From Chitinophagales bacterium (GTDB lineage: Bacteria > Bacteroidota > Bacteroidia > Chitinophagales > LD1), in contig DATGWP010000024.1 of the NCBI GenBank assembly GCA_035299425.1, positions 1,120 through 65,119 on the forward strand: a stretch of 64,000 bases of DNA, given 5' to 3'. Each line of letters starts with the position of its first letter. Positions within the stretch are counted from its first letter, which is position 1. Below, in pieces: positions 6,001 to 18,427 of the stretch. The notes under the pieces are model-generated. The model made no database searches and was not told the origin of the DNA. It saw only the letters and a program-made list of their open reading frames with translations. The translations under genes and the position numbers were made by a program.

Positions 6001-7053
6001 GGTTTGAAACGACAGACTTGGCTCGGTGTAGTAACCGCTATAGTTACTGCTCCAGGCACCTGAGCCACCGGCCGCGTCACCGGCCGCCCATACATACACA
6101 TTCCATGTGTTATTCCCTGGGGTAAGTGCCGGCTGTGTACGGTTAAAAGTTATTTGCCCGTTTGAGCCGCCACCGCCTTCCGAAACACGAAACTCAACTA
6201 CATCCGATGCATTTAAGAAACCCGTCCACACCGCAGTGTGTGGGTCGCAACAGCCAATGTGTTGCCATACGTTAGTGCCATTGATGAATAGCTGAGCTGC
6301 ATCATCGTGCCCGTTAATATCTATACTGTAATAGCCACATATACCGGTTCTTATGGCTCTCCAAGAGTGATTATCGTTACCAATATAACATCCTTTGTAA
6401 TCGTTAGCATCGTAAGGTGTGTTTACCCAACGGTTACCAGTGGAAAAAGATAAGGAAGGCTCGGTGTAGTAGCCGCTGTAATTACTACTCCAGGCACCGC
6501 TGCCGCCAGCCGCGTCCCCTGCCGCATAGCAGTAAACGTTCCATGTGCCATTACCCGCAGTTCCCTGGGCAGGTGAGGCAGGTGGAGAACACCGATAAGT
6601 AAGTATAGCCGAGCCCGATCCATAACCCTGGCAGCTATATCGATTATTCTGCACCCTGTATTCCCCGTCATAGTTCGCGGTCCAGTCAATAATAGATTGT
6701 AAACCGCAGGCATCATCATTATAGGGTCCTACGTATCCACCGCCAGAGTTAAATCCACTTAACTGGGTATCGTACGAACTACCACAGGTTTCATAATGAT
6801 AATTAGCTGTATTTTTAACCTGGAAACGTAAAAAAGCACCAGAGCCAATATTTACTGTTTGGTTATTTACTGTAGGATAATAGGTGTTACCATTTTCTTG
6901 CGCGTTGGCCCAACCGCAGACCTGAGCAGTAACGATCGCTAAGCCATAGAATAAAAGAAAACAGGTAAAAACTATTCGACGGATTAATGAATAATAATAG
7001 TTACTGTTTTGGATATTTTCTGTTTTAATAAAGAGCGAGGTAGAAGTAAACAT
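1..7053 (-). CDS. Giant secreted adhesin-like protein, 3'-truncated by the window edge (>2351 aa): signal-like N-terminus, about 4 PA14-like modules, then about 11 tandem Ig-like repeats
   Basis: Absent from the ORF track because it has no stop inside the window. Hand translation of the minus strand from the ATG at 7053..7051 gives MFTSTSLFIKTENIQNSNYYYSLIRRIVFTCFLLFYGLAIVTAQ... The frame is in phase at 4860 (..HDDDVYVYVNGVQQFVHNGCCDVHNGIWTGVLSTSDNVEYRFFEGGGGS..) and at 1638 (TYTFTVTLQSSGCTSGASGNAVIPAQ..). An in-frame stop would have produced a listed ORF starting at 7053, and none is listed. The HDD..VNG...EGGGGS modules recur near 3880, 4650, 5710 and 6170. Confidence 0.85.
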   Translation of the reverse strand, partial: MFTSTSLFIKTENIQNSNYYYSLIRRIVFTCFLLFYGLAIVTAQVCGWANAQENGNTYYPTVNNQTVNIGSGAFLRFQVKNTANYHYETCGSSYDTQLSGFNSGGGYVGPYNDDACGLQSIIDWTANYDGEYRVQNNRYSCQGYGSGSAILTYRCSPPASPAQGTAGNGTWNVYCYAAGDAAGGSGAWSSNYSGYYTEPSLSFSTGNRWVNTPYDANDYKGCYIGNDNHSWRAIRTGICGYYSIDINGHDDAAQLFINGTNVWQHIGCCDPHTAVWTGFLNASDVVEFRVSEGGGGSNGQITFNRTQPALTPGNNTWNVYVWAAGDAAGGSGAWSSNYSGYYTEPSLSFQTYSRWPDGGTPSSASGYIGCAVAADNHSWNASRTNFPCKSYQILVNHDDRGQVFVNGTLRYDVSACCFAPVPTANQNAGTYVLGASDIVEFRVSEGGGGSFGSIAVNDVTTALNGGTITYGGSTTACTGYDPPAFGNSADASGGTSAAITNGSTTYQWELNSVAISGATGATYDPGALTAGTYTYRRRVVDKCSNVAYSNTFTITVNGNTATAGAISPSSASINLGQSVTINSTTNATAASGTTLNIRWYRINSCTGSAWEDLGQTNSQTLPSNTPSAAGTWTYLRRSWSSCGAENVPASYDATTTVTVTSTAGNPATFGSNTWNVYAYCGNNLTLSNNIYQGYYVDNTLSFNTANVWVNGGNGSPSSLISGYTYTGGIVSADYHTVVYKRQGFPCKVYRLDIPTHDDDVYVYVNGVQQFVHNGCCDVHNGIWTGVLSTSDNVEYRFFEGGGGSQGALNVVDVTTALSGGTIGYAGSTSVCGPYDPPVLSNSAAASGGTSAANTNGTTDYQWELNNVSIPGATAATYDPGNITVAGTYNYRRKATDKCGTVAYSNTITIIVYTVPTSPTDGTAGNNEWNVFAYNSATPGTNYVGYYTHTSVDFNTDTRWSAQTAAISATTINATGGAAYTGCTTGVDNFSYRYKRQGFPCGIYTISYRHDDNLTISKNGGAAFYNAGCCINTITSSAGTTGIFLGPNTTLDVVSVEGGGAAFTQLQFVKTGDLTITSSNAAMCNNSAARALTANVAGGTWSGPGVSGSNFNPATAGAGTHTITYSLEGCSVTQQIVVNQTAAPTVGAVTPPTCTVATGSVALSNLPASSWTITASPSNLTLTGSTTTATFSGLPANTTQTFTVTLGSTGCTSAASAGAVIPAQPVTTSPPTVGTITPPTCTVATGSVALSNLPASNWTVTASPGGATITGNTTTATFSGLAQNTSYTFTVTLQSSGCTSVASSSAAIPAQPATPGAPSIVSITQPTCGTATGVINLGNLPASGTWTLTRNPGGVNTTGTGTTTSVSGLPSGTYTFTVTNSVNCVSAVSANAVVNSQPTTSPAPTIGTITPPTCSVATGSVALSNLPASNWTVTATPGGATITGNTTTATFSGLTQNTTYTFITTLQSSGCVSAASANAVIPAQPVTPAVPTVGTITPPTCTVATGSVALSNLPTSSWTVTAAPSGQLITGSTATATFSGLPANSTQTFTVTLQSSGCTSAPSSGAVIPAQPAIPAAPTVGTITNPTCALATGSVALSGLPTSNWTVTANPGGATITGNTATATFSGLAAGTTFNFIVTLQSSGCNSGATSNAVIPAQPVTPPAPTVGAITPPTCSVATGSVALSNLPASNWTVTASPGGATITGSTTTATFSGLTQNTTYTFTTALQSSGCTSAASANAVIPAQPITPAAPNVGTITPPTCTVATGSVALSNLPASNWTVTASPGGATITGNTTTATFAGLTASTTYTFTVTLQSSGCTSGASGNAVIPAQPVTPSAPVVGTITPPTCSVSTGSVNLSGLPNAAWTVTAQPGGFSITGSATSAVFTGLPAATTYTFTVTLTSSGCTSVASGNAVMPAQPITPPAPVAGTITGPTCALATASVALSNLPASSWTVTVSPGGATVTGSTTTTTVSNLTAGITYTFTVTLASSGCTSAPSNPASIPTQPVTPPAPVVSTITQPGCVTTTGSVGLTNLPAAAWTVTAAPGGTTITGNTTSATFSGLPASNTYTFTVTLSSSGCTSAASGNAVIAPAPSAPAAPLASVTAQPTCAVASGTISVSSPLGVNYEYALDGGTYQSSPTFSGVATGNHTVTVRLTVSPDCISPASGTLSINYVPTPLTTTPVSVCQGGTGYLTASNVCVDNFVVPAIPNRIYGGWLSSNSTASTPVGAVNNAVCSFSGPARTYSVIQFQVSATGNYIFEMNNNTTYNGAGYIFTGNFTPGACSGGTLLRIDNDGGSGDEPMLGTVGSPVSLNAGTTYTLVSTTDGASNVINNDYTWTVTPPAGENILLNQ
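790..3650 (-). repeat. About 11 diverged tandem coding repeats, period 258-264 bp (86-88 aa Ig-like unit: QPTC.VATGSV.LSNLPASNWTVTASPGGATITGNTTTATFSGL..NTTYTFTVT..SSGC.S.AS)
   Basis: Unit boundaries (TYTFTV) recur near 853, 1110, 1375, 1636, 1897, 2155, 2415, 2680, 2938, 3199 and 3460. The plus-strand ORFs 854-3685 in the track are antisense shadows with the same periodicity. Confidence 0.8.
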
Positions 7054-7132
7054 AATCCCATTTGCGTTTAAAAACATTTGTCAAAAAAACCTATTGCAAT
7101 AAGCAGCCTAAAGCTCATTTTGTCAATTCCTG

Positions 7133-7159
7133 CAAAGTTAAATTTGACGGACAAAATTA
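7133..7159 (-). promoter_or_regulatory. Two candidate Bacteroidota -7 boxes (TAACTTTG at 7140..7133; TAATTTTG at 7159..7152) upstream of the giant adhesin gene
   Basis: Both match the TAnnTTTG consensus on the minus strand, 80-100 nt upstream of the ATG at 7053. No experimental support. Confidence 0.25.
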
Positions 7160-7715
7160 GCATGCACATTCACAATTAATAATAACTCTAAGAAACTACG
7201 TGTTTAACGGAAAAAATTGACTCGTCGCTGGCAAATACAATGCCTTAATTGTAAATTACCTGTAGAAGTAGACTTGAAATATCCTTTTTAGGTTAAAACC
7301 ACTATAAATACTACGAAAATGCATTGTTGCAAGTCTGTAATTGGTAAAAACAACAACTCCAAAATCCACAAAAAAGGACATGGGGCATACAAGTATTATT
7401 TTATTGTTAATTTATCCGGTAAGCAGCTAAAAATAAGATGATTAACGTTTCTATAAAAACGAACCCTCATACAGCCGGCAACCTGTTACGCATGCAAAAC
7501 AAATATCAGCACGATTTACATGTTGATTTTCTACTGAACAATTCACCATCAAACAAAATAATACATACCATCTGTGCGGCCGGTCCACATTACTGCCCAT
7601 AGTAAGTATTTACAAGATGAGTTCGTCCTCGATTAAACATGACTTTAATATTAGGCAGCTTATAGCTTATCCGGCATCCATTCAAGGTCCAATAGACTTT
7701 ACAGATTTTGTTCTC

Positions 7716-7756
7716 AAAAAAAATACCGGCAATTTAACTGTGCCGGTATTTTTTTA
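7716..7756 (-). terminator. Rho-independent terminator after the cysH-peroxiredoxin unit
   Basis: Stem ATACCGGCA (7722-7730) / TGCCGGTAT (7741-7749). A-run on the left and T-run on the right. On the minus strand the hairpin is followed by UUUUUUUU. Confidence 0.7.
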
Positions 7757-7766
7757 AACTATTTAC

Positions 7767-8405
7767 CTATTTATTAGGCTGCGGTGTTAAGCGCAGGTAC
7801 GGCTTTACCCGCGTATGGCCTTTAGGGAATTTAGCCGGTATATCTTCATCCTTTACTGCCGGTGCAATTACCACATCTTCTCCATCTTTCCAATTAGCAG
7901 GTGTAGCTACCGAGTAGTTAGCCGTTAGCTGCAGGCTATCAATTACGCGCAGCAATTCATGAAAATTTCTACCGGTTGATGCCGGGTAAGTGATTATGAG
8001 TTTCACTTTCTTGTCAGGCCCTATAATAAACACCGACCTAACAGTAAATGTCTCGTTAGAGTTAGGGTGTATCATATCATACAGGTCGGCAACCTTGCGC
8101 TCAGGGTCGGCTATGATAGGAAAGTTAAGCACGGTGTTTTGTGTTTCGTTTATATCCTTTACCCACTCCTTATGCTTATCCAATTCATCTACACTTACGG
8201 CAATTATCTTAGCGTTGCGCTTATCAAACTCAGCCTTTAGTTTTGATGCCGTTCCAAGTTCGGTAGTACATACCGGTGTAAAATCGGCAGGGTGAGAGAA
8301 AAGAACACCCCAGCCATTGCCAAGCCATTCGTAAAAGTTAATAGTTCCATCTGTAGTTTCTGCAGTAAAATCGGGGGCGATGTCTCCAAGTCGTAAAGTA
8401 GCCAT
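7767..8405 (-). CDS. 1-Cys peroxiredoxin (Prx6-type)
   Basis: 212 aa. N-terminus LGDIAPDFTAETTDG..., peroxidatic motif FTPVCTTE. Length and C-terminal extension are typical of the 1-Cys Prx subfamily. Starts 37 nt after the cysH stop. Confidence 0.9.
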   Translation of the reverse strand: MATLRLGDIAPDFTAETTDGTINFYEWLGNGWGVLFSHPADFTPVCTTELGTASKLKAEFDKRNAKIIAVSVDELDKHKEWVKDINETQNTVLNFPIIADPERKVADLYDMIHPNSNETFTVRSVFIIGPDKKVKLIITYPASTGRNFHELLRVIDSLQLTANYSVATPANWKDGEDVVIAPAVKDEDIPAKFPKGHTRVKPYLRLTPQPNK

Positions 8406-8442
8406 GTGCTGTTTTTGTTTTTTAGTGGTTTATAATAATGAT

Positions 8443-9183
8443 TTAAATAGTCCAGTTGCCGGGTTGCGAGGCCTCGTTTGTATGTATGCCGCATTCCTTC
8501 TCGGTGTTGCCCTCCCACCACCAACGGCCAGAACGTTCGTTATCGCCGGTTCTTACCGCCCGTGTGCAGGGTGCGCATCCTATGCTCAAAAAGCCTTTGT
8601 CTGATAGTTCATTGTATGGAATACTCTCGCTTCGTATCATATCCTTTACTTCCTCTGCAGTCCAGTAAAAAAGAGGATAAACTTTTATCAATCCCCGCTT
8701 CTCATCCCACTCTACCTGACTCTTCTCTGCCCGGTTAGACGACTGCGTAGCACGCACACCCGATAGCCATATTTTCTGTCCTTGCAAAGCGCGGTTCAGT
8801 GGCTCCAACTTGCGCAGGTAGCAGCACTCCTTACGGTCATCTACCGAATTGTAAAAACTATTGGGCCCTTTTTGCTGTAGCATGTTTTGAAGGCGCTCGG
8901 TTTGCGGGTAATAGGTTTCTATGTTTACGCCATACTTCTCATTGGTAGCTTTCCATACATTATAAGTCTCCTGGAACTGGCGGCCGGTATCGATGGTAAA
9001 TACCTTAACCGGAATTTTGTTTTTAAAAATGAAATGAGATATAACCTGCCCCTCTAAGCCAAAGGCTGTAGAGTAACACACAGCCGCAGGAAACTGCTCA
9101 GCAAGCCAGCGCAGCCCATCGGCTACGGTCATGCTTTGCATGGCCTGGTTAATTTCTTCTACCCGTTTTTTTAACTCACTCAT
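8443..9183 (-). CDS. cysH: Assimilatory (P)APS reductase, thioredoxin-dependent (CysH), Fe-S-type cysteine pattern
   Basis: 246 aa. PAPS-reductase fold motifs and C-terminal KECGIH. The cysteine pairs KECCYLRK and GCAPCT are typical of the [4Fe-4S] APS-reductase subgroup. Confidence 0.9.
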   Translation of the reverse strand: MSELKKRVEEINQAMQSMTVADGLRWLAEQFPAAVCYSTAFGLEGQVISHFIFKNKIPVKVFTIDTGRQFQETYNVWKATNEKYGVNIETYYPQTERLQNMLQQKGPNSFYNSVDDRKECCYLRKLEPLNRALQGQKIWLSGVRATQSSNRAEKSQVEWDEKRGLIKVYPLFYWTAEEVKDMIRSESIPYNELSDKGFLSIGCAPCTRAVRTGDNERSGRWWWEGNTEKECGIHTNEASQPGNWTI

Positions 9184-9201
9184 TTTACAATATCATTAAA
9201 A

Positions 9202-9236
9202 CAAAAAAGGCCTCCCCGAAACCGGAAAGACCTTTT
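9202..9236 (-). terminator. Attenuator terminator in the cysH 5' leader
   Basis: Minus strand reads AAGGUCUUUCC-GGUUUC-GGGGAGGCCUU followed by UUUUUGUUUU. The stem is 11 bp including 3 G.U pairs. It ends 18 nt before the cysH ATG and lies inside a 5' leader, not at a gene end. Confidence 0.6.
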
Positions 9237-9256
9237 TGCTATTAGTTTATATATGG

Positions 9257-9343
9257 TTATGCAAAAGCCTCTCCTGTCGCTATTTTCATAGCGCAACACA
9301 TAGTGCAGCAACAAGAGAATTTTATTTGGCTTTGGTTAAACAT
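9257..9343 (-). CDS. Candidate cysteine-rich leader peptide (28 aa) of cysH: MFNQSQIKFSCCCTMCCAMKIATGEAFA
   Basis: Hand-translated and below the ORF-track size cutoff. ATG at 9343..9341, TAA at 9259..9257. There are 5 Cys codons within 7 codons (9313-9293). It sits between a promoter-like motif and the leader terminator. Confidence 0.6.
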   Translation of the reverse strand: MFNQSQIKFSCCCTMCCAMKIATGEAFA

Positions 9344-9358
9344 TAATTTGCTTTGTAT

Positions 9359-9370
9359 TGCAAGTATAAA
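9359..9370 (-). promoter_or_regulatory. Shared 12-nt motif TTTATACTTGCA (copy 1), 15 nt upstream of the cysH leader ORF; contains a near -7 box TATACTTG
   Basis: Identical 12-mer to 9998-10009 (+). Each copy immediately precedes one of the two Cys-rich mini-ORFs. Confidence 0.35.
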
Positions 9371-9380
9371 CTAATAAATA

Positions 9381-9992
9381 GTGAATAACCAAAACATTCC
9401 TTCTAAAAATTTTCTGTTCCCTGTTTTTCTGAGGCTTGAACAGATGCGTGTATTATTAGTAGGGGCCGGCCCCGTGGGGCTTGAAAAAGCCACCGCCATA
9501 CTTAGCAATTGCCCTAACATACAACTACACATAATAGCGGAAGTAGTAAGCCCTGAAGTAAGGGCGCTGCCGGGCAATTTCAGCGGTGTAACCATTACCG
9601 AGCGAAGGTTTAACGATGATGATTTAATTGGCATACAGGTGCTTTTTCTGGCTATAAACAATAAGGAATTGAGCGGTGTTATATATACAAAGGCCCATCA
9701 GCTAAACATACTGGTAAATGTGGCCGACACACCCGATTTTTGCGATTTCTACATGTCGTCAATAGTGCAAAAGGGGCAGCTTAAACTGGCTATCTCTACC
9801 AATGGCCAATCGCCCACTATGGCCAAACGCCTGAAAGAAGTATTGAACGATGCCCTGCCTGACGAACTGGACGACCTGATAGCCAACTTAAACCAGGTGC
9901 GTAACGGCCTGAAAGGAGATTTTGCGGATAAGGTAAAGCAGCTAAACGAGCTGACCAGCTCCCTCAAAATAAAAGAGGGTGGCAATAAATAA
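9381..9992 (+). CDS. sirC: Precorrin-2 dehydrogenase / sirohydrochlorin ferrochelatase (siroheme synthase N-terminal-domain type, SirC/Met8-like)
   Basis: 203 aa with a GTG start. LFPVFLRLEQMRVLLVGAGPVGLEKA is the typical Rossmann N-terminus of CysG-N/SirC. Context is with cobA and cysJI. Confidence 0.8.
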   Translation: MNNQNIPSKNFLFPVFLRLEQMRVLLVGAGPVGLEKATAILSNCPNIQLHIIAEVVSPEVRALPGNFSGVTITERRFNDDDLIGIQVLFLAINNKELSGVIYTKAHQLNILVNVADTPDFCDFYMSSIVQKGQLKLAISTNGQSPTMAKRLKEVLNDALPDELDDLIANLNQVRNGLKGDFADKVKQLNELTSSLKIKEGGNK

Positions 9993-9997
9993 AGTTT

Positions 9998-10009
9998 TTT
10001 ATACTTGCA
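9998..10009 (+). promoter_or_regulatory. Shared 12-nt motif TTTATACTTGCA (copy 2), 7 nt upstream of the second Cys-rich mini-ORF
   Basis: 12/12 identity with the minus-strand copy at 9370..9359. Confidence 0.35.
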
Positions 10010-10016
10010 GTGTTCA

Positions 10017-10088
10017 ATGAAAAATACCACTCATATCCTTTTTTCTATGCACAACATTTGTTGTTGCGTGGCTTGCTGTTGTTGTTAA
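10017..10088 (+). CDS. Candidate cysteine-rich leader peptide (23 aa) preceding cobA-cysJ-cysI: MKNTTHILFSMHNICCCVACCCC
   Basis: Hand-translated. ATG at 10017, TAA at 10086-10088. 7 of the last 9 codons are Cys. It lies in the 198-bp gap between sirC and cobA. The Cys codons form the 5' arm of a hairpin (10072-10081 with 10091-10101). Confidence 0.5.
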   Translation: MKNTTHILFSMHNICCCVACCCC

Positions 10089-10190
10089 TTCAACAGGCAA
10101 GTCTGAGTATTCCATAAAAAAATATTGTTCGGATTTGTTTGCACTAAGCAGAAAGTGGGGTGATGTTATAGTATTATTAAACCGGTAAAA

Positions 10191-10973
10191 ATGAGCAAGA
10201 CAAAAGGTAAAGTTTTCCTGGTAGGCGCCGGCCCCGGCGACCCGGGACTATTCACCCTAAAAGGTGCGGCTGTATTAGCTACTGCCAATGTAGTGCTGCA
10301 CGACCGGCTGGTTAGCCCCGAAATACTAAAACATGCACCGACTACCGCTGAGATACTACTGACCGGCAAACAAGGCTTTGCAAAATCTACTGCCCAAACC
10401 TATATTGATGAGTTATTGGTAAAGTATGCACTGCAAGGCAAAACAGTGGTAAGGCTTAAAGGTGGTGATGTATCCTTCTTCTCCAATATACTCAACGAAC
10501 TGGAAGCACTGGCCGCAAACGAAATAGAGTTTGAAATTATACCTGGCGTTACTTCTGCATCGGGCTGTGCAGCCTACACAGGCATACCGCTTACGGCAAG
10601 AGGATATAGCGATGAGGTTCATTTCCTTTCGCTATACAATGTAGAAGAGGATACTACCAAGCTGGATAGAATAGCTACCATGCAAGGCACTATTGTATTG
10701 TATATGTCAAGCAACAACCTGGCAGAAACCACGCAGCAACTAAAGCATATTGGAATGCCCGATAGAAAGCTGGTGGTGATAGAGCAAGGCACTACGCCCT
10801 TTCAGCAACAGTATTTTACATCGGTGCATAAGGCCGCTGTAGATTTGGCAGGTAAGAAGATAAATTCTCCGGCACTGGTAATTATTGGCGAGGTGGTAAG
10901 CCTGTCCGAAAAATTTAATTGGTATAAAGGCAGCCACAACGGGCACTATTTTAAAGAACTAACTAAGGGATAA
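10191..10973 (+). CDS. cobA: Uroporphyrinogen-III C-methyltransferase (SUMT)
   Basis: 260 aa. KVFLVGAGPGDPGLFTLKGAAVLATANVVLHDRLV and GGDVSFF motifs of the tetrapyrrole methylase family. Confidence 0.9.
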   Translation: MSKTKGKVFLVGAGPGDPGLFTLKGAAVLATANVVLHDRLVSPEILKHAPTTAEILLTGKQGFAKSTAQTYIDELLVKYALQGKTVVRLKGGDVSFFSNILNELEALAANEIEFEIIPGVTSASGCAAYTGIPLTARGYSDEVHFLSLYNVEEDTTKLDRIATMQGTIVLYMSSNNLAETTQQLKHIGMPDRKLVVIEQGTTPFQQQYFTSVHKAAVDLAGKKINSPALVIIGEVVSLSEKFNWYKGSHNGHYFKELTKG

Positions 10974-10974
10974 T

Positions 10975-12669
10975 ATGCTAAGCGAAGAGCAACTACAAAA
11001 GCTTACAGATTTTATTGGTCAATACAGCCGCGAAGAACAGCTATGGATAAGCGGCTATATATCCGGCTTAAATAATGGAGCAGGTAGCGCACCTGCAGGT
11101 GCTGCATTGATAACAGCTAAGGTTACTATTGCTTATGGCACCGAAACCGGAAACTCTAAAAAGATAGCATCGCAACTGGCAGCACGCGCCAAACAGCGTA
11201 AGATAAATGCCAAGGTTGTTAGCCTGGACCAATACAAAACCACAGAGCTTGAAAAGGAAGAATACTTCTTTACCATAGTAAGTACACACGGCGATGGCGA
11301 ACCACCTGCTGCAGCCAAAAAGTTTTACGACTATCTGCACAGCAGCGAAAAAAGCCTACCCAAACTAAAATACAGTGTGCTTGCCCTGGGCGATACAGCT
11401 TATCCTCTCTTCTGCAAAACCGGTGAAGATGTGGATGCACAATTTGAAAAACTGGGGGCGCGCAAAATTGCCGACCGACGGAATTGTGATGTGGATTATG
11501 AAGCAGAGGCCAATGCCTGGATAGATGATATACTCACTAATCTATTAGCTGTACCGGGTGGTAACGCTGCCGAAAAAGCTGTAGAAAAGAAAAAGCCATC
11601 GGGCCGTGTTATTTACAAGGGTAAAATAACCACCAACATAAACCTGAACGATACAGGCTCGAATAAGGAAACTTACCATATAGAAATTTTGCCGGATGGC
11701 ACGGCCCACTATGCACCGGGCGATTCGATAGGTATAATACCGGTAAATTTAGAAAGCGAAGTACAGCAGGTTTTAAAAACCCTGGGCACCATAGGCAGCG
11801 AGTTTGTAACGTATAAAGACAAACGATTCTCCTTTTACCACTTACTAAAAACCACGCTGAATATAAAGCAAATGCCGCAGCGTGTGCTAAACAAATACGC
11901 CGCGCTGGAAGAAATTACCACTGAGATAAAAGGGCCTCTTGATTTTGCCGATTTGCTTAATGCCTTTCCTGCTAAAAAGCTGCAAGGCAATTGGCAGGCA
12001 CTAACCGATTTGCTGGAGCCTATTTCGCCGCGCTTGTATTCGGTAGCAAGCAGCAATGCAGCGCACAATGAAGAAGTGCATATTACAGTTGCCCGCTCTA
12101 CGTTCAAGAAAGACGGTGTAAAGCAATATGGCCTGGCCTCTAACTATTTATCGCAGTTGCCGATAGGCACCGATATTCAGTTTTATGTGCAGAAGAACAA
12201 CGCTTTCCACCTGCCTGCGGATGACAAGGATATTATAATGGTAGGTCCGGGTACAGGTATTGCCCCTTTCCGTGCTTTTGTGGCCGAGCGCGATGCGCGG
12301 GGCGCCGAAGGGCGCAATTGGTTGTTTTTTGGTGACCAGCATTTTAAAACGGATTTCCTGTATCAAACCGAATGGCAAAATTACCTGGAAACAGGCGTGC
12401 TAAATCGTATGGATGTAGCATTTTCGCGCGATACCGAAAACAAGGTGTATGTTCAGCATAAGTTGCAGCAACATGCAGCGGCTGTTTTTGAATGGTTGCA
12501 GGGCGGCGCTTATTTTTATGTATGCGGCGCCAAAGAACCAATGAGTGTGGATGTGGAAGAAACACTGCTGCAGATAATTGACCAGCAAAGTGGAAATGGG
12601 CGAGAATATGCCGAAGAGTATATCAACACACTGAAAGAGGAAGGGAGATATTTAAAAGATGTATATTAA
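10975..12669 (+). CDS. cysJ: Sulfite reductase (NADPH) flavoprotein alpha subunit
   Basis: 564 aa. Flavodoxin-like domain (ITIAYGTETGNSKKIA) followed by an FAD/NADPH ferredoxin-reductase domain (RLYSVASS, GPGTGIAPFRAF, C-terminal YLKDVY). ATG lies 1 nt after the cobA stop. Confidence 0.9.
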   Translation: MLSEEQLQKLTDFIGQYSREEQLWISGYISGLNNGAGSAPAGAALITAKVTIAYGTETGNSKKIASQLAARAKQRKINAKVVSLDQYKTTELEKEEYFFTIVSTHGDGEPPAAAKKFYDYLHSSEKSLPKLKYSVLALGDTAYPLFCKTGEDVDAQFEKLGARKIADRRNCDVDYEAEANAWIDDILTNLLAVPGGNAAEKAVEKKKPSGRVIYKGKITTNINLNDTGSNKETYHIEILPDGTAHYAPGDSIGIIPVNLESEVQQVLKTLGTIGSEFVTYKDKRFSFYHLLKTTLNIKQMPQRVLNKYAALEEITTEIKGPLDFADLLNAFPAKKLQGNWQALTDLLEPISPRLYSVASSNAAHNEEVHITVARSTFKKDGVKQYGLASNYLSQLPIGTDIQFYVQKNNAFHLPADDKDIIMVGPGTGIAPFRAFVAERDARGAEGRNWLFFGDQHFKTDFLYQTEWQNYLETGVLNRMDVAFSRDTENKVYVQHKLQQHAAAVFEWLQGGAYFYVCGAKEPMSVDVEETLLQIIDQQSGNGREYAEEYINTLKEEGRYLKDVY

Positions 12670-14369: not shown

Positions 14370-15575
14370 ATGAATGCACATTACCGGCAAACCATTTCTG
14401 ACAAACTCGATACCCTTAAACAACAGGGTAACTATCGCTATTTTCAGGATGTAAATAAGTCGGCAAAGCATTTCCCCCGTTTTTATTTTGACGATGAAAC
14501 CGGTAAAAAGAAAAGCGCCGTAAATTGGTGCAGTAACGATTACCTGTGCATGAGTATTCACGAAGATGTTATAAGCAAGTTATCGTTTACAGCCCACCAC
14601 AGCGGCGTGGGCAGCAGCGGCACCCGCAATATATCGGGCACTACCGGCTACCATAAGCAACTGGAAGAAAGCGTAGCTAACCTGCATGGCAAAGAAGCCG
14701 CTATTATTTTCAATAGTGCTTTTCTGGCAAACCTTTCAACCCTTGCCACCCTGGGCAGGGCTTTTAGTGATGCGGTATTTATTTCAGACGAGCGCAACCA
14801 TGCATCTATAATTGAAGGCATACGTAGCAGTGGATGTAAAAAAATTGTATTCAAGCATAATGACGTGCAGCACCTGGAAGAGGTGCTTTCTGCTTTGCCA
14901 GCTGAGCAATCAAAAATCATTGTATTTGAAAGTGTTTACTCTATAAGCGGCAACGTGGCACCGGTACAGGAAATAACAGCGTTAGCAAAAAAATACAATG
15001 CCCTAACTTACATAGATGAAGTACATGCCGTGGGCCTTTACGGTGCTACCGGCGCGGGTATTGCAGGACAGCAAGGACTGCAAAATGAAGTGGATATCAT
15101 CAACGGCACATTTGCCAAAGCATTTGGCACATTAGGTGGTTATATTACTACCGATGCCATGATGGCCGATTACCTGCGCAGCTTTGCCAGCGGGTTTATT
15201 TTCACTACTTCTCTCCCACCTGCTATTTGCAGCGCTACTATCAAAAGCATTGAGCTGGTAAAACAGAATAATGAATGGCGGGAACAATTTCACGGGGCGG
15301 TAAAAAAGTTGCGGGCATTATTGGCCGATAAGCAAATCCCATTTCATACCAACGCCTCGCATGTAACGGCGGTTCATATTGGAGATAACATAAGCTGCAA
15401 AGCGATAGCCGATAGGTTATTGAACGAGTTTGGCATTTACCTGCAGCCTATCAATCCGCCCACTGTAAAAGAAGGAGAGGCCTGTTTGCGGATTACGGTT
15501 ACAGCCAAACATACAGAAAGCGATATGCAACAAATGGTAAATGCACTTTCAATTGTGATGCATGAAACAGTTTAA
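14370..15575 (+). CDS. hemA: 5-aminolevulinate synthase (Shemin/C4 pathway; alpha-oxoamine synthase family)
   Basis: 401 aa. NYRYFQDVNKSAKHFP...VNWCSNDYLCM matches the ALAS signature WCSNDYLGM, as opposed to BioF or Kbl. PLP-lysine context GTFAKAFGTLGGYI. Flanked by hemC and hemB. Confidence 0.75.
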   Translation: MNAHYRQTISDKLDTLKQQGNYRYFQDVNKSAKHFPRFYFDDETGKKKSAVNWCSNDYLCMSIHEDVISKLSFTAHHSGVGSSGTRNISGTTGYHKQLEESVANLHGKEAAIIFNSAFLANLSTLATLGRAFSDAVFISDERNHASIIEGIRSSGCKKIVFKHNDVQHLEEVLSALPAEQSKIIVFESVYSISGNVAPVQEITALAKKYNALTYIDEVHAVGLYGATGAGIAGQQGLQNEVDIINGTFAKAFGTLGGYITTDAMMADYLRSFASGFIFTTSLPPAICSATIKSIELVKQNNEWREQFHGAVKKLRALLADKQIPFHTNASHVTAVHIGDNISCKAIADRLLNEFGIYLQPINPPTVKEGEACLRITVTAKHTESDMQQMVNALSIVMHETV

Positions 15576-17070
15576 AATTGTTTGCCGCAGTTCGTCCCTA
15601 TCTGTTATACAGGCAGAAATTGCACGCCAGTACATTTTAAAAGCAGCACCGGGTACAGAAATAGAAATCGTATTAAAAGAAACCAGCGGCGACCTTGACC
15701 AGAGCCGTCCATTATATGAGTTAGAAGGCCGCGACTTCTTCTCTAAGGAAATTGATGAATACCTATTAACCGGTAAAGCTGATTTTGCAGTTCATTCAAT
15801 GAAAGACCTGAGCGGTAACCGCCTGGACGATGAGCGTTTTGTAAATGCTGTGCCTGAACGAAACGACCCGCGTGATGTTATAATTTTCAATCCGGATGTA
15901 TTAGATAAGATTGCATCGGGCAAACCGCTGGTGATAGGAACTTCTTCTTTACGCAGACAATTGCAGGCTATCAACTTTCTTAAAAAGGCATTGCCGGTGG
16001 TCAATGGTTTATCTGCCTCTACAGAAACCAAAACCATACGCGGCAATGTAGATTCGCGTTTGCAGCAATTGCAGGATGGGAAATTTGACGGTATTATACT
16101 TGCTGCAGCCGGCTTAAACCGATTGCTTACTGGTGGCAATAGCAACGTGGCTTCACTTTTAAGCGGCAAACGGAAAATGTTTCTACCCCTTATTGAATGT
16201 GCGCCGGCTCCGGGGCAGGGTGCTTTATTAATAGAGTGCCTGAAAACGAATAGCTCAGCTGCTGAAATTCTTGCCGGTGTAAATAATACAGCCCTATCTG
16301 CGCAATTGGAAACAGAGAGAAATTCAGTAACCCATTTAGGCGGCGGGTGCCACCAGCAGTATGGGTCTGTCTATATCGATACGCCTCATGGTGGGTTTGT
16401 AAATGTAGCAGGCATAGACGAAAAAGGGAATGATGTTAGCGATATGATATTTGATGTATCGTTGGATATCTCTGGTAAAAAAATGTTCTCTGCCGGCGAC
16501 CATATGAAGGATTTTTTCAGTTACGAATTTCAGAGTGCAGACCTATCCGGATTATCCGATGTTGTTTTCGTAGCACATCACCGCGCTGTTACACCTGCAA
16601 TAGCCGAACAGTTAAAGGATAAACAAGTATGGTGCTCGGGTAGCCGCAGTTGGTATGAGTTGGCCAAGCTGGGTATTTGGTGCCAGGGATGTGCCGATGG
16701 GTTAGGCTTTCATTTCTTATCGAATACGTTCGCTCAGCCATTAACTTCTATAAATAAAGAAACGATAACAATTTTAACCAATACCCAGGCTGCCGAAGAA
16801 TGGGCTAAAGAAAATGTGGTTGCTGTCGGCACTTATAAACTGATTCCGAATTTATCGAAAGAACTATGCGATGGCATAAGTGGCGCCGACATTATCTACT
16901 GGACCAATTTTGAGCAATATCTTGCGGCTAAGCATTTGCTAAAGGCCGGCGTTACACATGCTTGTCCATCGGGCAAAACTGTTGAATTGTTTTTAAAGAA
17001 TAACATTGAGCCGGTGGTGTTTCCCGGTATTAAGGCATTTAATATATGGAGAAAGAAAAACACTATATGA
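15562..17070 (+). CDS. hemC: Porphobilinogen deaminase (HemC) with about 190-aa C-terminal extension, possibly a uroporphyrinogen-III synthase (HemD)-like domain
   Basis: 502 aa. HemC motifs (GTSSLRRQLQ, RGNVDSRLQQLQDGKFDGIILAAAGLNRL, GGGCHQQYG) occupy the first ~300 aa. Assigning the remainder to HemD rests only on pathway logic and weak resemblance. Overlaps the ALAS gene by 14 nt. Confidence 0.8.
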   Translation: MKQFKIVCRSSSLSVIQAEIARQYILKAAPGTEIEIVLKETSGDLDQSRPLYELEGRDFFSKEIDEYLLTGKADFAVHSMKDLSGNRLDDERFVNAVPERNDPRDVIIFNPDVLDKIASGKPLVIGTSSLRRQLQAINFLKKALPVVNGLSASTETKTIRGNVDSRLQQLQDGKFDGIILAAAGLNRLLTGGNSNVASLLSGKRKMFLPLIECAPAPGQGALLIECLKTNSSAAEILAGVNNTALSAQLETERNSVTHLGGGCHQQYGSVYIDTPHGGFVNVAGIDEKGNDVSDMIFDVSLDISGKKMFSAGDHMKDFFSYEFQSADLSGLSDVVFVAHHRAVTPAIAEQLKDKQVWCSGSRSWYELAKLGIWCQGCADGLGFHFLSNTFAQPLTSINKETITILTNTQAAEEWAKENVVAVGTYKLIPNLSKELCDGISGADIIYWTNFEQYLAAKHLLKAGVTHACPSGKTVELFLKNNIEPVVFPGIKAFNIWRKKNTI

Positions 17071-18029
17071 ACCAGCGCAGGCTAAGGGCCAATGAACATA
17101 TACGTGAGTTAGCAGCACAGGTATATGTATCACATAAAGATTTTATACAGCCCGTATTTGTTGACGAAGCGTTAACCGAGCGACAATCGGCAAAACACCT
17201 TACCGGTGTGTACACCGAAACCATCGAATCGGTGCTGCAGCAAACTGAAAAGGATATTGCCGGGGGAGTAACTAAATTCCTGCTATTCCCTGTGCCCGCT
17301 CGAAAATCGGAAAATGGATTTTCATTTGATTTTGCTGCGGAGGTTACAAACCGCTTAAAACAAACTTTTGGCAATTCTATCTGGCTGGCAAACGATGTTT
17401 GCCTGTGCAGCTATACCACGCACGGACATTGCGGTATTTTGAGTAAAGAAGGTGACAGGCTTTTAAACGATGATACAGTAATAGTGCTGGCAGATTATGT
17501 TTTGCAATTAGCCCAGGCCGGCAGCAATTGCATAGCCCCCAGCGATATGAGCGACGGCCGCATTAGCGCTATAAGAGAAGCTTTAGATACTAATGGATAC
17601 GACGTCACCGCTATTATGAGTTACGCCGCTAAGTTTAGCTCATCGTTCTACGGACCATTCCGCGATGTATGTAAATCTGCACCGGGCAAAAGCCAGTTGA
17701 ACAACCGGGCTACTTACCAGTTAGATTATAGAAACCATAAAGATGCTTTAGCGACAGCATTACGCGATGCAGAAGAAGGCGCCGATATACTTATGGTAAA
17801 ACCGGCATTGCCTTATCTCGATATTGTTCAAACAATAAATAAGGCGATACCAAAACCGATAGCAGTTTACCACGTAAGTGGGGAATATGCAGCACTGGAG
17901 TTTCTGGCCCAACAACAGTTAGGAGAACGCGCTGCCTTGCACAAAGAAGTATGGACAGCTTTTAAACGAGCCGGCGCATCTGTAATAATATCTTATGCAT
18001 CGAGAGAGGCAAAAGAGTGGCTTCAATAA
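17067..18029 (+). CDS. hemB: Porphobilinogen synthase (delta-aminolevulinate dehydratase), Zn-type
   Basis: MNQRRLRANEHIRELAAQ...FIQPVFVDE. Cys-rich metal site DVCLCSYTTHGHCG. Active-site context SYAAKFSSSFYGPFRD. I place the start at the ATG at 17067, which overlaps the hemC stop as ATGA. The track start at 17046 is an alternative. Confidence 0.9.
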   Translation: MNQRRLRANEHIRELAAQVYVSHKDFIQPVFVDEALTERQSAKHLTGVYTETIESVLQQTEKDIAGGVTKFLLFPVPARKSENGFSFDFAAEVTNRLKQTFGNSIWLANDVCLCSYTTHGHCGILSKEGDRLLNDDTVIVLADYVLQLAQAGSNCIAPSDMSDGRISAIREALDTNGYDVTAIMSYAAKFSSSFYGPFRDVCKSAPGKSQLNNRATYQLDYRNHKDALATALRDAEEGADILMVKPALPYLDIVQTINKAIPKPIAVYHVSGEYAALEFLAQQQLGERAALHKEVWTAFKRAGASVIISYASREAKEWLQ

Positions 18030-18031
18030 GC

Positions 18032-18427
18032 CTAAGACTCTCCTAGTTTACCTACCAGGCCCATAACCTTATTGAACTGCTTCTCTACAACCGAGTAGAA
18101 GATGTATTTTCCATCACGCTCGGTTTTTACCAGGCCTGCAGTACGTAAAATGGCCAAATGCTGCGACATAATAGATTGCTCTACTTTTAGCTTAGAGCAA
18201 AGTTCGCTTACCACACTTTGATTATTTGAAATAACGTAGCGAAGTATTCTTTGCCTGTCTGCATTCTGCACCGCACGAATAAGGAATGCTGCCCGATTGA
18301 TGTTCTTGGCATTGTCCTTAATTACCTGCGCTTTAGCTGCATTTGCAACCTTATCGGCTTTAGTAACTTTTGTTTTTTTGGGGGTCATGTTGTTGTTTTT
18401 AGCTGTATTTGATGTTTTAGCGGCCAC
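18032..18427 (-). CDS. ArsR/SmtB-family transcriptional regulator with a lysine-rich N-terminal tail
   Basis: Winged-HTH core RQRILRYVISNNQSVVSELCSKLKVEQSIMSQHLAILRTAGLVKTERDGKYIFYS. The track start is a GTG at 18427; the ATG at 18388 (MTPKKTK..) is an alternative. Confidence 0.8.
   Translation of the reverse strand: MAAKTSNTAKNNNMTPKKTKVTKADKVANAAKAQVIKDNAKNINRAAFLIRAVQNADRQRILRYVISNNQSVVSELCSKLKVEQSIMSQHLAILRTAGLVKTERDGKYIFYSVVEKQFNKVMGLVGKLGES

Follow-up and report, generated by a model that had tools for sequence, protein, structure and literature searches.

A candidate cysteine-sensing leader-peptide attenuator upstream of cysH in a clade of Chitinophagales

A stretch of 64,000 nucleotides from a Chitinophagales bacterium (contig DATGWP010000024.1; the whole stretch is called the window here) was found to carry, on its minus strand and directly upstream of the sulfate-assimilation gene cysH, a leader that is very probably a ribosome-mediated transcription attenuator specific for cysteine. 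The leader combines a 28-codon open reading frame (ORF), which contains a run of cysteine codons, with four RNA segments that can pair into competing hairpins. Since the mini-ORF and the competing hairpins are both conserved in Chitinophagales relatives, the leader most likely switches on cysH, a gene of the cysteine pathway, when cysteine is short. An earlier note on this DNA had proposed an attenuation scheme of the trp/his type at this site. Every element of that scheme is present and conserved in nine orthologous leaders, and the evidence for it is comparative throughout.

The leader ORF (MFNQSQIKFSCCCTMCCAMKIATGEAFA; 28 codons followed by a stop) occupies positions 9343-9257 of the minus strand, to which all coordinates of the cysH leader refer. 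Five of its codons specify Cys, arranged as a CCC block (9313-9305) and a CC block (9298-9293) that are separated by a Thr and a Met codon; translation of the window placed both the ORF and its Cys codons exactly where the earlier note had read them. In eight of the nine leaders the second Cys block has a Met codon next to it (in the window, the Met/Cys stretch covers 9298-9287), and, speculatively, Met codons beside the Cys blocks may let the attenuator sense methionine too. When intergenic poly-Cys ORFs were defined by an ATG start, a length of at most 60 codons, at least 4 Cys in 7 residues and a position outside long ORFs, the window was found to hold only two (9343-9257 on the minus strand and 10017-10088 on the plus strand), against 0.013 expected per window from shuffled intergenic sequence. 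Each of the two heads one of the two sulfate-assimilation operons, on the correct strand. Cys-rich stretches are common in the off-frames of coding DNA. The possibility that the leader is a chance ORF was rejected, as the ORF is conserved and such ORFs are strongly enriched in intergenic sequence. Leader ORFs of 20-30 codons are absent from the called genes of every gene-called relative examined.

The four RNA segments described in the earlier note were confirmed base for base. Region 1 contains the segment UUCUCUUG (9319-9312) and, taken as UUCUCUUGUUG (9309-9319), shares nucleotides with the first Cys codons; minimum free energy (MFE) folds pair it with region 2. Region 2 (CAGGAGAGGCUUUUGC, 9261-9276) takes up the ORF's five final sense codons and includes the segments CAGGAGAG (9276-9269) and GGAGAGGCUUUU (9274-9263); it is the predicted antiterminator strand and a near-copy of region 4 (GGAGAGGC versus GGGGAGGCC in the window, GGGAAAGUAUU versus GGGGAGACCUAUU in the relative L091). 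The leader stop codon, UAA at 9259-9257, had been described as lying directly past region 2, and it is found 3 nt beyond it. Region 3 contains AAAAGGUCUUUCC (9236-9224) and forms the 5′ arm of the terminator (CAAAAAGGUCUUUCCG, 9223-9238), whereas region 4 contains GGGGAGGCCUU (9217-9207) and forms the 3′ arm (CGGGGAGGCC), which together with the U-run UUUUUUGUUUU covers 9198-9218. A terminator scan recovered this element as a 15-pair hairpin at 9237-9204 followed by TGTTTT, which ends 18 nt before the cysH ATG, the distance previously claimed.

The leader as a whole (9380-9184, 197 nt) folds with an MFE of -58.1 kcal/mol. Dinucleotide shuffles reach -37.9 ± 3.7 kcal/mol (z = -5.4), and none of 200 is as stable. 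The 1:2 helix is present together with the terminator in the MFE structure of the leader. A small hairpin, GCUAU-GAAA-AUAGC (GCUAUGAAAAUAGC, 9279-9292), separates the Cys codons from region 2. Per-sequence folds place a hairpin at the same position in eight of nine relatives, with differing stem sequences, and it may serve as a pause or spacer element. A search of positions 7000-12000 with Rfam 15 (4227 models, E up to 10) returned no match to the leader on either strand of 9184-9400, which answers the earlier suggestion that an existing model be looked for; the sole weak intergenic match was to Plastid-rpoB, at 9409-9444 on the opposite strand (E 7.3).

The lineage of the window is known only from metagenome-assembled genomes (MAGs), and its CysH is 98% identical to that of another Chitinophagales MAG (L001). 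Nine distinct leaders were compared: the window, L002, L003, L004, L090, L091 (identical to L092), L093, L094 (identical to L095) and L096 (identical to L097). They were drawn from a species-genome collection and from contigs encoding CysH homologues 67-82% identical to that of the window. A genome-contig search with the single window CysH gave 9 loci, of which 3 were useful; L001, L099 and L100 are partial copies, cut inside the leader. All nine leaders retain a TTATAnTTG box, an A-rich stretch, the AUG, an ORF of 26-28 codons, and a terminator with its U-run just before cysH. The leader ORFs of the relatives contain 5-6 Cys codons in two blocks, in frame in all nine, and the stop follows the last Cys codon by 10-12 codons in every case. 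The conservation of the mini-ORF and its Cys run, on which the proposal had been made to depend, thus held. Cys codon usage is mixed across the nine leaders (30 TGT and 19 TGC).

At the level of the peptide, conservation extends to an N-terminal MFxQ[ST]QI motif and to the CCC..CC pattern. At the C-terminal end, the region 2 motif GGRRAGGYUUUG is kept as nucleotides, but its frame is shifted in L003 and L090, so that the peptides end in ...MGRRLG and ...NREVLA rather than the usual ...TGEAFA, while the Cys codons stay in frame. This frame shift indicates that the constraint acts on the RNA and not on the peptide. In-frame Cys codons combined with an end conserved as RNA are the pattern expected of a regulatory leader rather than of a functional peptide.

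Comparative folding with RNAalifold recovered the terminator and the 1:2 helix. The terminator helix is 94.9% paired across the nine sequences, and 4 of its 13 pairs show compensatory changes. Pairing in the aligned 1:2 helices amounts to 88-97% and, as the earlier note predicted for a region 1 that abuts the Cys codons, pairing with region 2 appears in the window fold and in the per-sequence folds of all nine leaders, although its register varies; the N-terminal CAAA pairs with UUUG in this helix in 35 of 36 sequence-pair cells (97%). All five whole-structure measures beat 500 of 500 column shuffles, and sliding the partner column lowers the pairing. For the 12 pairs of the 2:3 helix, pairing stands at 89.8%, against 76% or lower once the 3′ partner is slid. 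In both the MAFFT and the covariance-model alignments, the terminator arms of L003, L002 and L093 stand one column off, and the pair counts are conservative for this reason.

The antiterminator was probed by folding with a mask over the stretch that a ribosome halted at the last Cys codon would cover, at a stage when region 4 is not yet transcribed. With region 1 masked and region 4 withheld, every one of the nine leaders pairs region 2 with region 3 (-11.7 to -23.5 kcal/mol), and between 0 and 22 of 200 shuffles of the upstream part match this pairing; a 2:3 antiterminator that excludes the terminator, as put forward in the earlier note, is therefore predicted for every member of the set. The geometry also fits. 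A ribosome covers about 12-15 nt 3′ of its A site. With the last Cys codon in the A site it protects the RNA to about 9281, and region 2, which starts about 17 nt past that codon, is left free (9276-9261). The idea that a ribosome at the stop codon masks region 2, whereas one stalled on the Cys codons does not, is in keeping with the placement of the stop in all nine leaders.

Taken together, these features suggest the following mechanism. A Bacteroidota-type promoter would start transcription some 10-14 nt ahead of the leader AUG, and the ORF would be translated. When Cys-tRNA(Cys) is abundant, the ribosome would pass the five Cys codons, reach the UAA at 9259-9257 and cover region 2 (9276-9261); region 3 would then pair with region 4, and RNA polymerase would terminate at the U-run (about 9203-9198), before cysH. 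When cysteine is scarce, the ribosome would stall in vivo on the Cys codons at 9313-9293, covering region 1 but not region 2. Region 2 would thus be free to pair with region 3, the terminator would be blocked, and cysH and the peroxiredoxin gene behind it would be transcribed. Without translation, the 1:2 and 3:4 helices would both form and transcription would terminate.

Several observations weigh against such a switch. When all four regions are present in the masked folds, the terminator always wins at equilibrium; as the equilibrium folds always keep the terminator, the switch must be kinetic, as it is in trp. Compensatory changes, which the earlier note proposed to look for in all of the pairings, are found in the 3:4 helix (4 pairs), but the 2:3 helix shows weak covariation: changes on both sides are limited to two pairs, and most differences are G or A opposite U. 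The shuffle control for 2:3 is likewise mixed, with 7 to 85 of 500 shuffles reaching the observed values and two of the five measures matched by about 10% of shuffles. The nine sequences all come from one clade, and the counts are therefore not independent. Finally, L098, whose CysH is 61% identical, has neither a Cys leader nor a terminator. In this nearest relative outside the clade (L098, 480-708), the divergent gene arrangement is kept and the leader ORF contains no Cys codons (MLHLRQINKSSMLNELQTTNS); the attenuator was either lost in L098 or never gained there.

The gene that the attenuator would control, cysH (8443-9183, minus strand, with its ATG at 9183), encodes a protein of the PAPS_reduct family (Pfam PF01507, E 4.6e-47). 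The CC...CxxC and ECG[IL]H motifs are invariant in the homologue alignment, which assigns CysH to the iron-sulfur, APS reductase-like type. A 1-Cys peroxiredoxin gene (7767-8405, minus strand; Pfam AhpC-TSA and 1-cysPrx_C) lies 37 nt downstream of cysH and is probably co-transcribed with it; the same gene order is found in L091, L093, L096, L099 and L100. Just past the peroxiredoxin gene, at 7698-7777, weak sub-threshold Rfam matches to Thr_leader and STnc240 were seen on both strands (E 0.015-2). The Thr_leader matches were rejected as a leader, the simplest reading being a bidirectional terminator hairpin after the peroxiredoxin gene. Upstream of cysH, the neighbouring siroheme-synthase N-domain gene (ATG at 9444, plus strand) is divergent. 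No gene therefore ends at the leader terminator, and the notion that the hairpin before cysH terminates a neighbouring gene was ruled out.

The promoter of the leader is read from the sequence. A candidate -7 box, TATACTTG (9361-9368, minus strand), ends 17 nt before the leader ATG, and a candidate -33 element, TTTG (9390-9393, minus strand), lies 21 nt upstream of that box. The box fits the Bacteroidota -7 consensus TAnnTTTG, reportedly that of Bayley et al. in 2000, and the TTATAnTTG that covers it is invariant in all nine aligned relatives. From the position of the box, a 5′ untranslated region (5′-UTR) of about 10-14 nt is predicted. A scan for sigma-70 promoters found no match in the cysH leader, which says little, because Bacteroidota promoters are of another type than the consensus that was scanned.

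The second poly-Cys leader of the window (MKNTTHILFSMHNICCCVACCCC, 10017-10088, plus strand) has its own TATACTTG box upstream and is flanked by the siroheme-synthase gene on one side and an operon of seven frames on the other. This operon begins with cobA (10191), cysJ (10975) and cysI (12694), all on the plus strand, and continues, within 14370-18029, with genes for a class-I/II aminotransferase, possibly a 5-aminolevulinate (ALA) synthase, HemC (porphobilinogen deaminase; 502 aa, long enough for a hemD-like extension) and HemB (ALA dehydratase). With the nearby SUMT and siroheme-synthase N-domain genes included, the operon amounts to most of a siroheme supply line, which apparently stands under the second Cys leader. 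A gene for an ArsR/MarR-type winged-helix regulator (18032-18427, minus strand) is convergent with the end of this sulfite-reductase/haem operon. The second leader is unrelated to the cysH leader and is present in every member of the clade (L002-L004, L090-L096). It has no terminator and is followed by a conserved 10-bp hairpin, GCAARUCUGA...UCGGAUUUGU, with covarying pairs and a loop of 20-25 nt (arms at 10096-10106 and 10128-10139, plus strand), and its Cys codons can pair with CAACAGGCAAG just past its stop.

Breadth beyond the clade was assessed with 80 metagenomic cysH loci obtained by a CysH-alignment search (CysH 42-56% identical, none from the window clade), a set that served for breadth and not for covariation. 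A poly-Cys ORF lies within 450 nt upstream of cysH in 15 of the 80 loci; of the 34 loci in which cysH is preceded by 100 nt or more of non-coding DNA, 13 have one. Three further loci (L015, L025 and L056) have ORFs that contain a CC pair. Over all fetched loci, 25 poly-Cys mini-ORFs were counted in 31 kb of intergenic DNA versus 23 in 466 kb of coding DNA. For 14 of the 15 poly-Cys loci the closest CysH is from Ferruginibacter or Ginsengibacter (60-79% identity), from which the phenomenon appears to be widespread in Chitinophagales; the CysH of L062 is closest to a Sphingobacteriaceae sequence (59%). A Ferruginibacter genome carries MLYISSIMCKCICCTTAGCCSDPL before cysH. Where cysH lies inside an operon, as in Pedobacter nototheniae (L102), no such leader was found directly upstream.

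Most of the distant leaders end in ...CCCC-stop and have no terminator, like the second leader of the window. The terminator-bearing design was found only in the window clade and in two weak matches to R1, a covariance model of the cysH leader, at L056 (2853-2960, MKYNCCSKSEELLSFVFL; E 0.014) and L062 (688-845, MSKINLNKMSNCCCKCCKRSNQLLPYRKT; E 0.026). In both, a short Cys-containing ORF is followed by a strong terminator whose 3′ arm is mimicked inside the ORF, as in the window element. The two designs are possibly convergent with that of the window, homology being unproven. Upstream of the poly-Cys leaders, 13 of 16 terminator-less loci (L017, L019, L023, L027, L028, L030, L031, L035, L040, L042, L048, L069 and L101) have a TAGAC motif, often (G/A)TAGAC, for which the background rate is 0.025 per 75 nt. 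In 11 loci it stands at a fixed offset, 21-22 nt after the start of the TAnnTTTG box, and it is often in an inverted repeat with GTCTA beside the box. The motif, which is absent from both window leaders, could be a transcription-factor operator or a hairpin at the 5′ end. The leader AUG of L035, L040 and L042 follows the box by about 9 nt, so that these transcripts are nearly leaderless.

The same material bears on what the cysH leader might be if it were not a transcription attenuator. Stalling in the mini-ORF could sense cysteine and yet act through an output other than termination (translation initiation of cysH, mRNA stability or access of Rho), with the hairpin as a structural or stabilising element. 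The only Cys leaders that have been studied experimentally do act on translation, and neither most poly-Cys cysH leaders of other Chitinophagales nor the second window leader has a terminator. The cysH leader, however, has a canonical one, with a GC-containing stem of 10 to 15-18 pairs, a U-run and compensatory changes over the nine sequences; region 2 precisely mimics its 3′ arm, and the hairpin, lying where it does, would not occlude the cysH AUG. An output other than termination is thus considered unlikely.

Two further explanations are both considered highly improbable. According to one, the leader is a metabolite or protein switch (a riboswitch or protein-dependent antitermination), and the ORF with its UGY repeats is a by-product of a U/G-rich pairing strand. 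Riboswitches often control genes of sulfur metabolism, the leader fold is very stable, and the variation between TGT and TGC equally fits G-U and G-C pairing to region 2. The empty Rfam search, on the other hand, extended to E 10 on both strands, and the AUG, the 26-28-codon frame and the position of the stop are kept in all nine leaders despite the change of frame in region 2 of two of them. Moreover, unrelated leaders that end in 4-8 Cys codons precede cysH and cobA-cysJI in many other genomes, which disfavours a structural by-product. The other explanation, scarcely to be expected either, takes the ORF for a functional Cys-rich micropeptide with a metal or redox role, co-expressed with cysH behind a constitutive, partial terminator. 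The motifs conserved in the peptide and the peroxiredoxin neighbour would suit such a role, but the C-terminal third is conserved as RNA across a frame shift, the conserved N-terminal codons also serve the CAAA-UUUG pairing of the 1:2 helix, and the peptide has neither a signal peptide nor a partner gene. The peptides of other poly-Cys leaders have only their Cys runs in common. Attenuation of transcription by a ribosome that reads the Cys codons accounts for these features best, and it is this reading that is carried forward here.

Regulation of sulfate assimilation is normally ascribed to proteins such as CysB and CymR, and little is known of how Bacteroidota regulate their sulfur metabolism. 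The two window leaders lead to a wider proposal, which we judge to have slightly better than an even chance of being right: that Chitinophagales run sulfate assimilation and a dedicated siroheme supply as a ribosome-sensed cysteine regulon, independent of that of mycobacteria. In such a regulon, the cysH-prx and the cobA-cysJ-cysI-aminotransferase-hem operons may each be governed by a poly-Cys leader of their own, and there may be two outputs, a trp-type terminator/antiterminator and a terminator-less form with a conserved long-loop hairpin. The mechanism itself is textbook; the attenuator is apparently undescribed and hints at a cysteine regulon in a second phylum. If true, a conserved Cys attenuator would offer a testable handle on sulfur sensing in abundant soil and freshwater bacteria and a compact cysteine-responsive genetic part for Bacteroidota, and the idea of ribosome-directed regulons would extend beyond mycobacteria. 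A seed alignment and the covariance model R1 are available for a new RNA family.

The classical leader-peptide attenuators are those of E. coli and Salmonella trp, his, leu, thr, ilv and pheA, represented in Rfam by Trp_leader, His_leader, Leu_leader and Thr_leader. To our knowledge, textbooks do not count cysteine among the amino acids under such control, and we know of no earlier classical transcription attenuator for cysteine, so that the type found in the window would be the first. Like the classical elements, the window leader consists of a short ORF rich in codons for the pathway's final product, four segments with 1:2, 2:3 and 3:4 pairings, and an intrinsic terminator shortly ahead of cysH, the first structural gene; its stop codon is likewise placed so that a terminating ribosome would mask region 2. 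It differs from them in the amino acid that it would sense, in its host (a member of the Bacteroidota, with a TAnnTTTG-type promoter and no Shine-Dalgarno sequence), and in having region 2 inside the ORF, as its last five codons, rather than past the stop. Nor does it resemble any Rfam leader family in sequence or by covariance model.

Poly-Cys short ORFs of mycobacteria are proven cysteine sensors (Canestrari et al. 2020, bioRxiv 10.1101/834739). As in the mycobacterial "Cys ribulon", Cys codon runs in a short upstream ORF are proposed here to sense cysteine by ribosome stalling, and several sulfur or cysteine operons per genome, two in the window, have a Cys ORF each. In M. smegmatis, however, the Cys leaders are translational attenuators on leaderless mRNAs (10.1101/834739), the studied case acting by exposure of the Shine-Dalgarno site of the gene that follows, and the description of actinobacterial Cys leaders as translational attenuators is still found in a paper of 2026 (PMC13236596). 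Unlike these, the window leader has a full terminator/antiterminator and a predicted short 5′-UTR. Sequestration of a ribosome-binding site of the mycobacterial type was not found in it: the competing structure is the terminator, and the start region of cysH is uncovered. Since the two differ in phylum and are unrelated in sequence, an independent origin is presumed. In Actinobacteria, Cys leader ORFs had been predicted upstream of cys and cbs operons by comparative genomics, with "no obvious terminators" and an unknown mechanism for which Rho was proposed (Seliverstov et al. 2005, PMC1262725); these resemble the second window leader (10017-10088) more than the cysH leader.

Within the Bacteroidota, leader-peptide attenuators have been reported for ilvE and hisG of Flavobacterium psychrophilum (PMC9723704, supplement). 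They share with the cysH leader the phylum and the proposed mechanism, a short Ile- or His-rich ORF in a structured 5′ region, but differ in the amino acid, and no leader for cysteine or sulfate assimilation is listed in that supplement. Leader attenuation as such is thus not new to the phylum, although no cysteine leader is among the reported cases. The view of the earlier note that a Cys-sensing leader in Bacteroidota would be unusual needs a qualification. In open-access full text, cysteine leader peptides were found described in Actinobacteria only and none in Bacteroidota; Cys leaders are therefore already known, whereas the combination of cysteine, a complete terminator/antiterminator and a Bacteroidota host was found undescribed in that literature. 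The window leader is placed with the classical transcription attenuators because it agrees with them in all features that can be read from sequence, and not with the mycobacterial mechanism. The comparison supports the cysH leader as a cysteine-responsive member, from the Bacteroidota, of the classical leader-peptide transcription attenuators.

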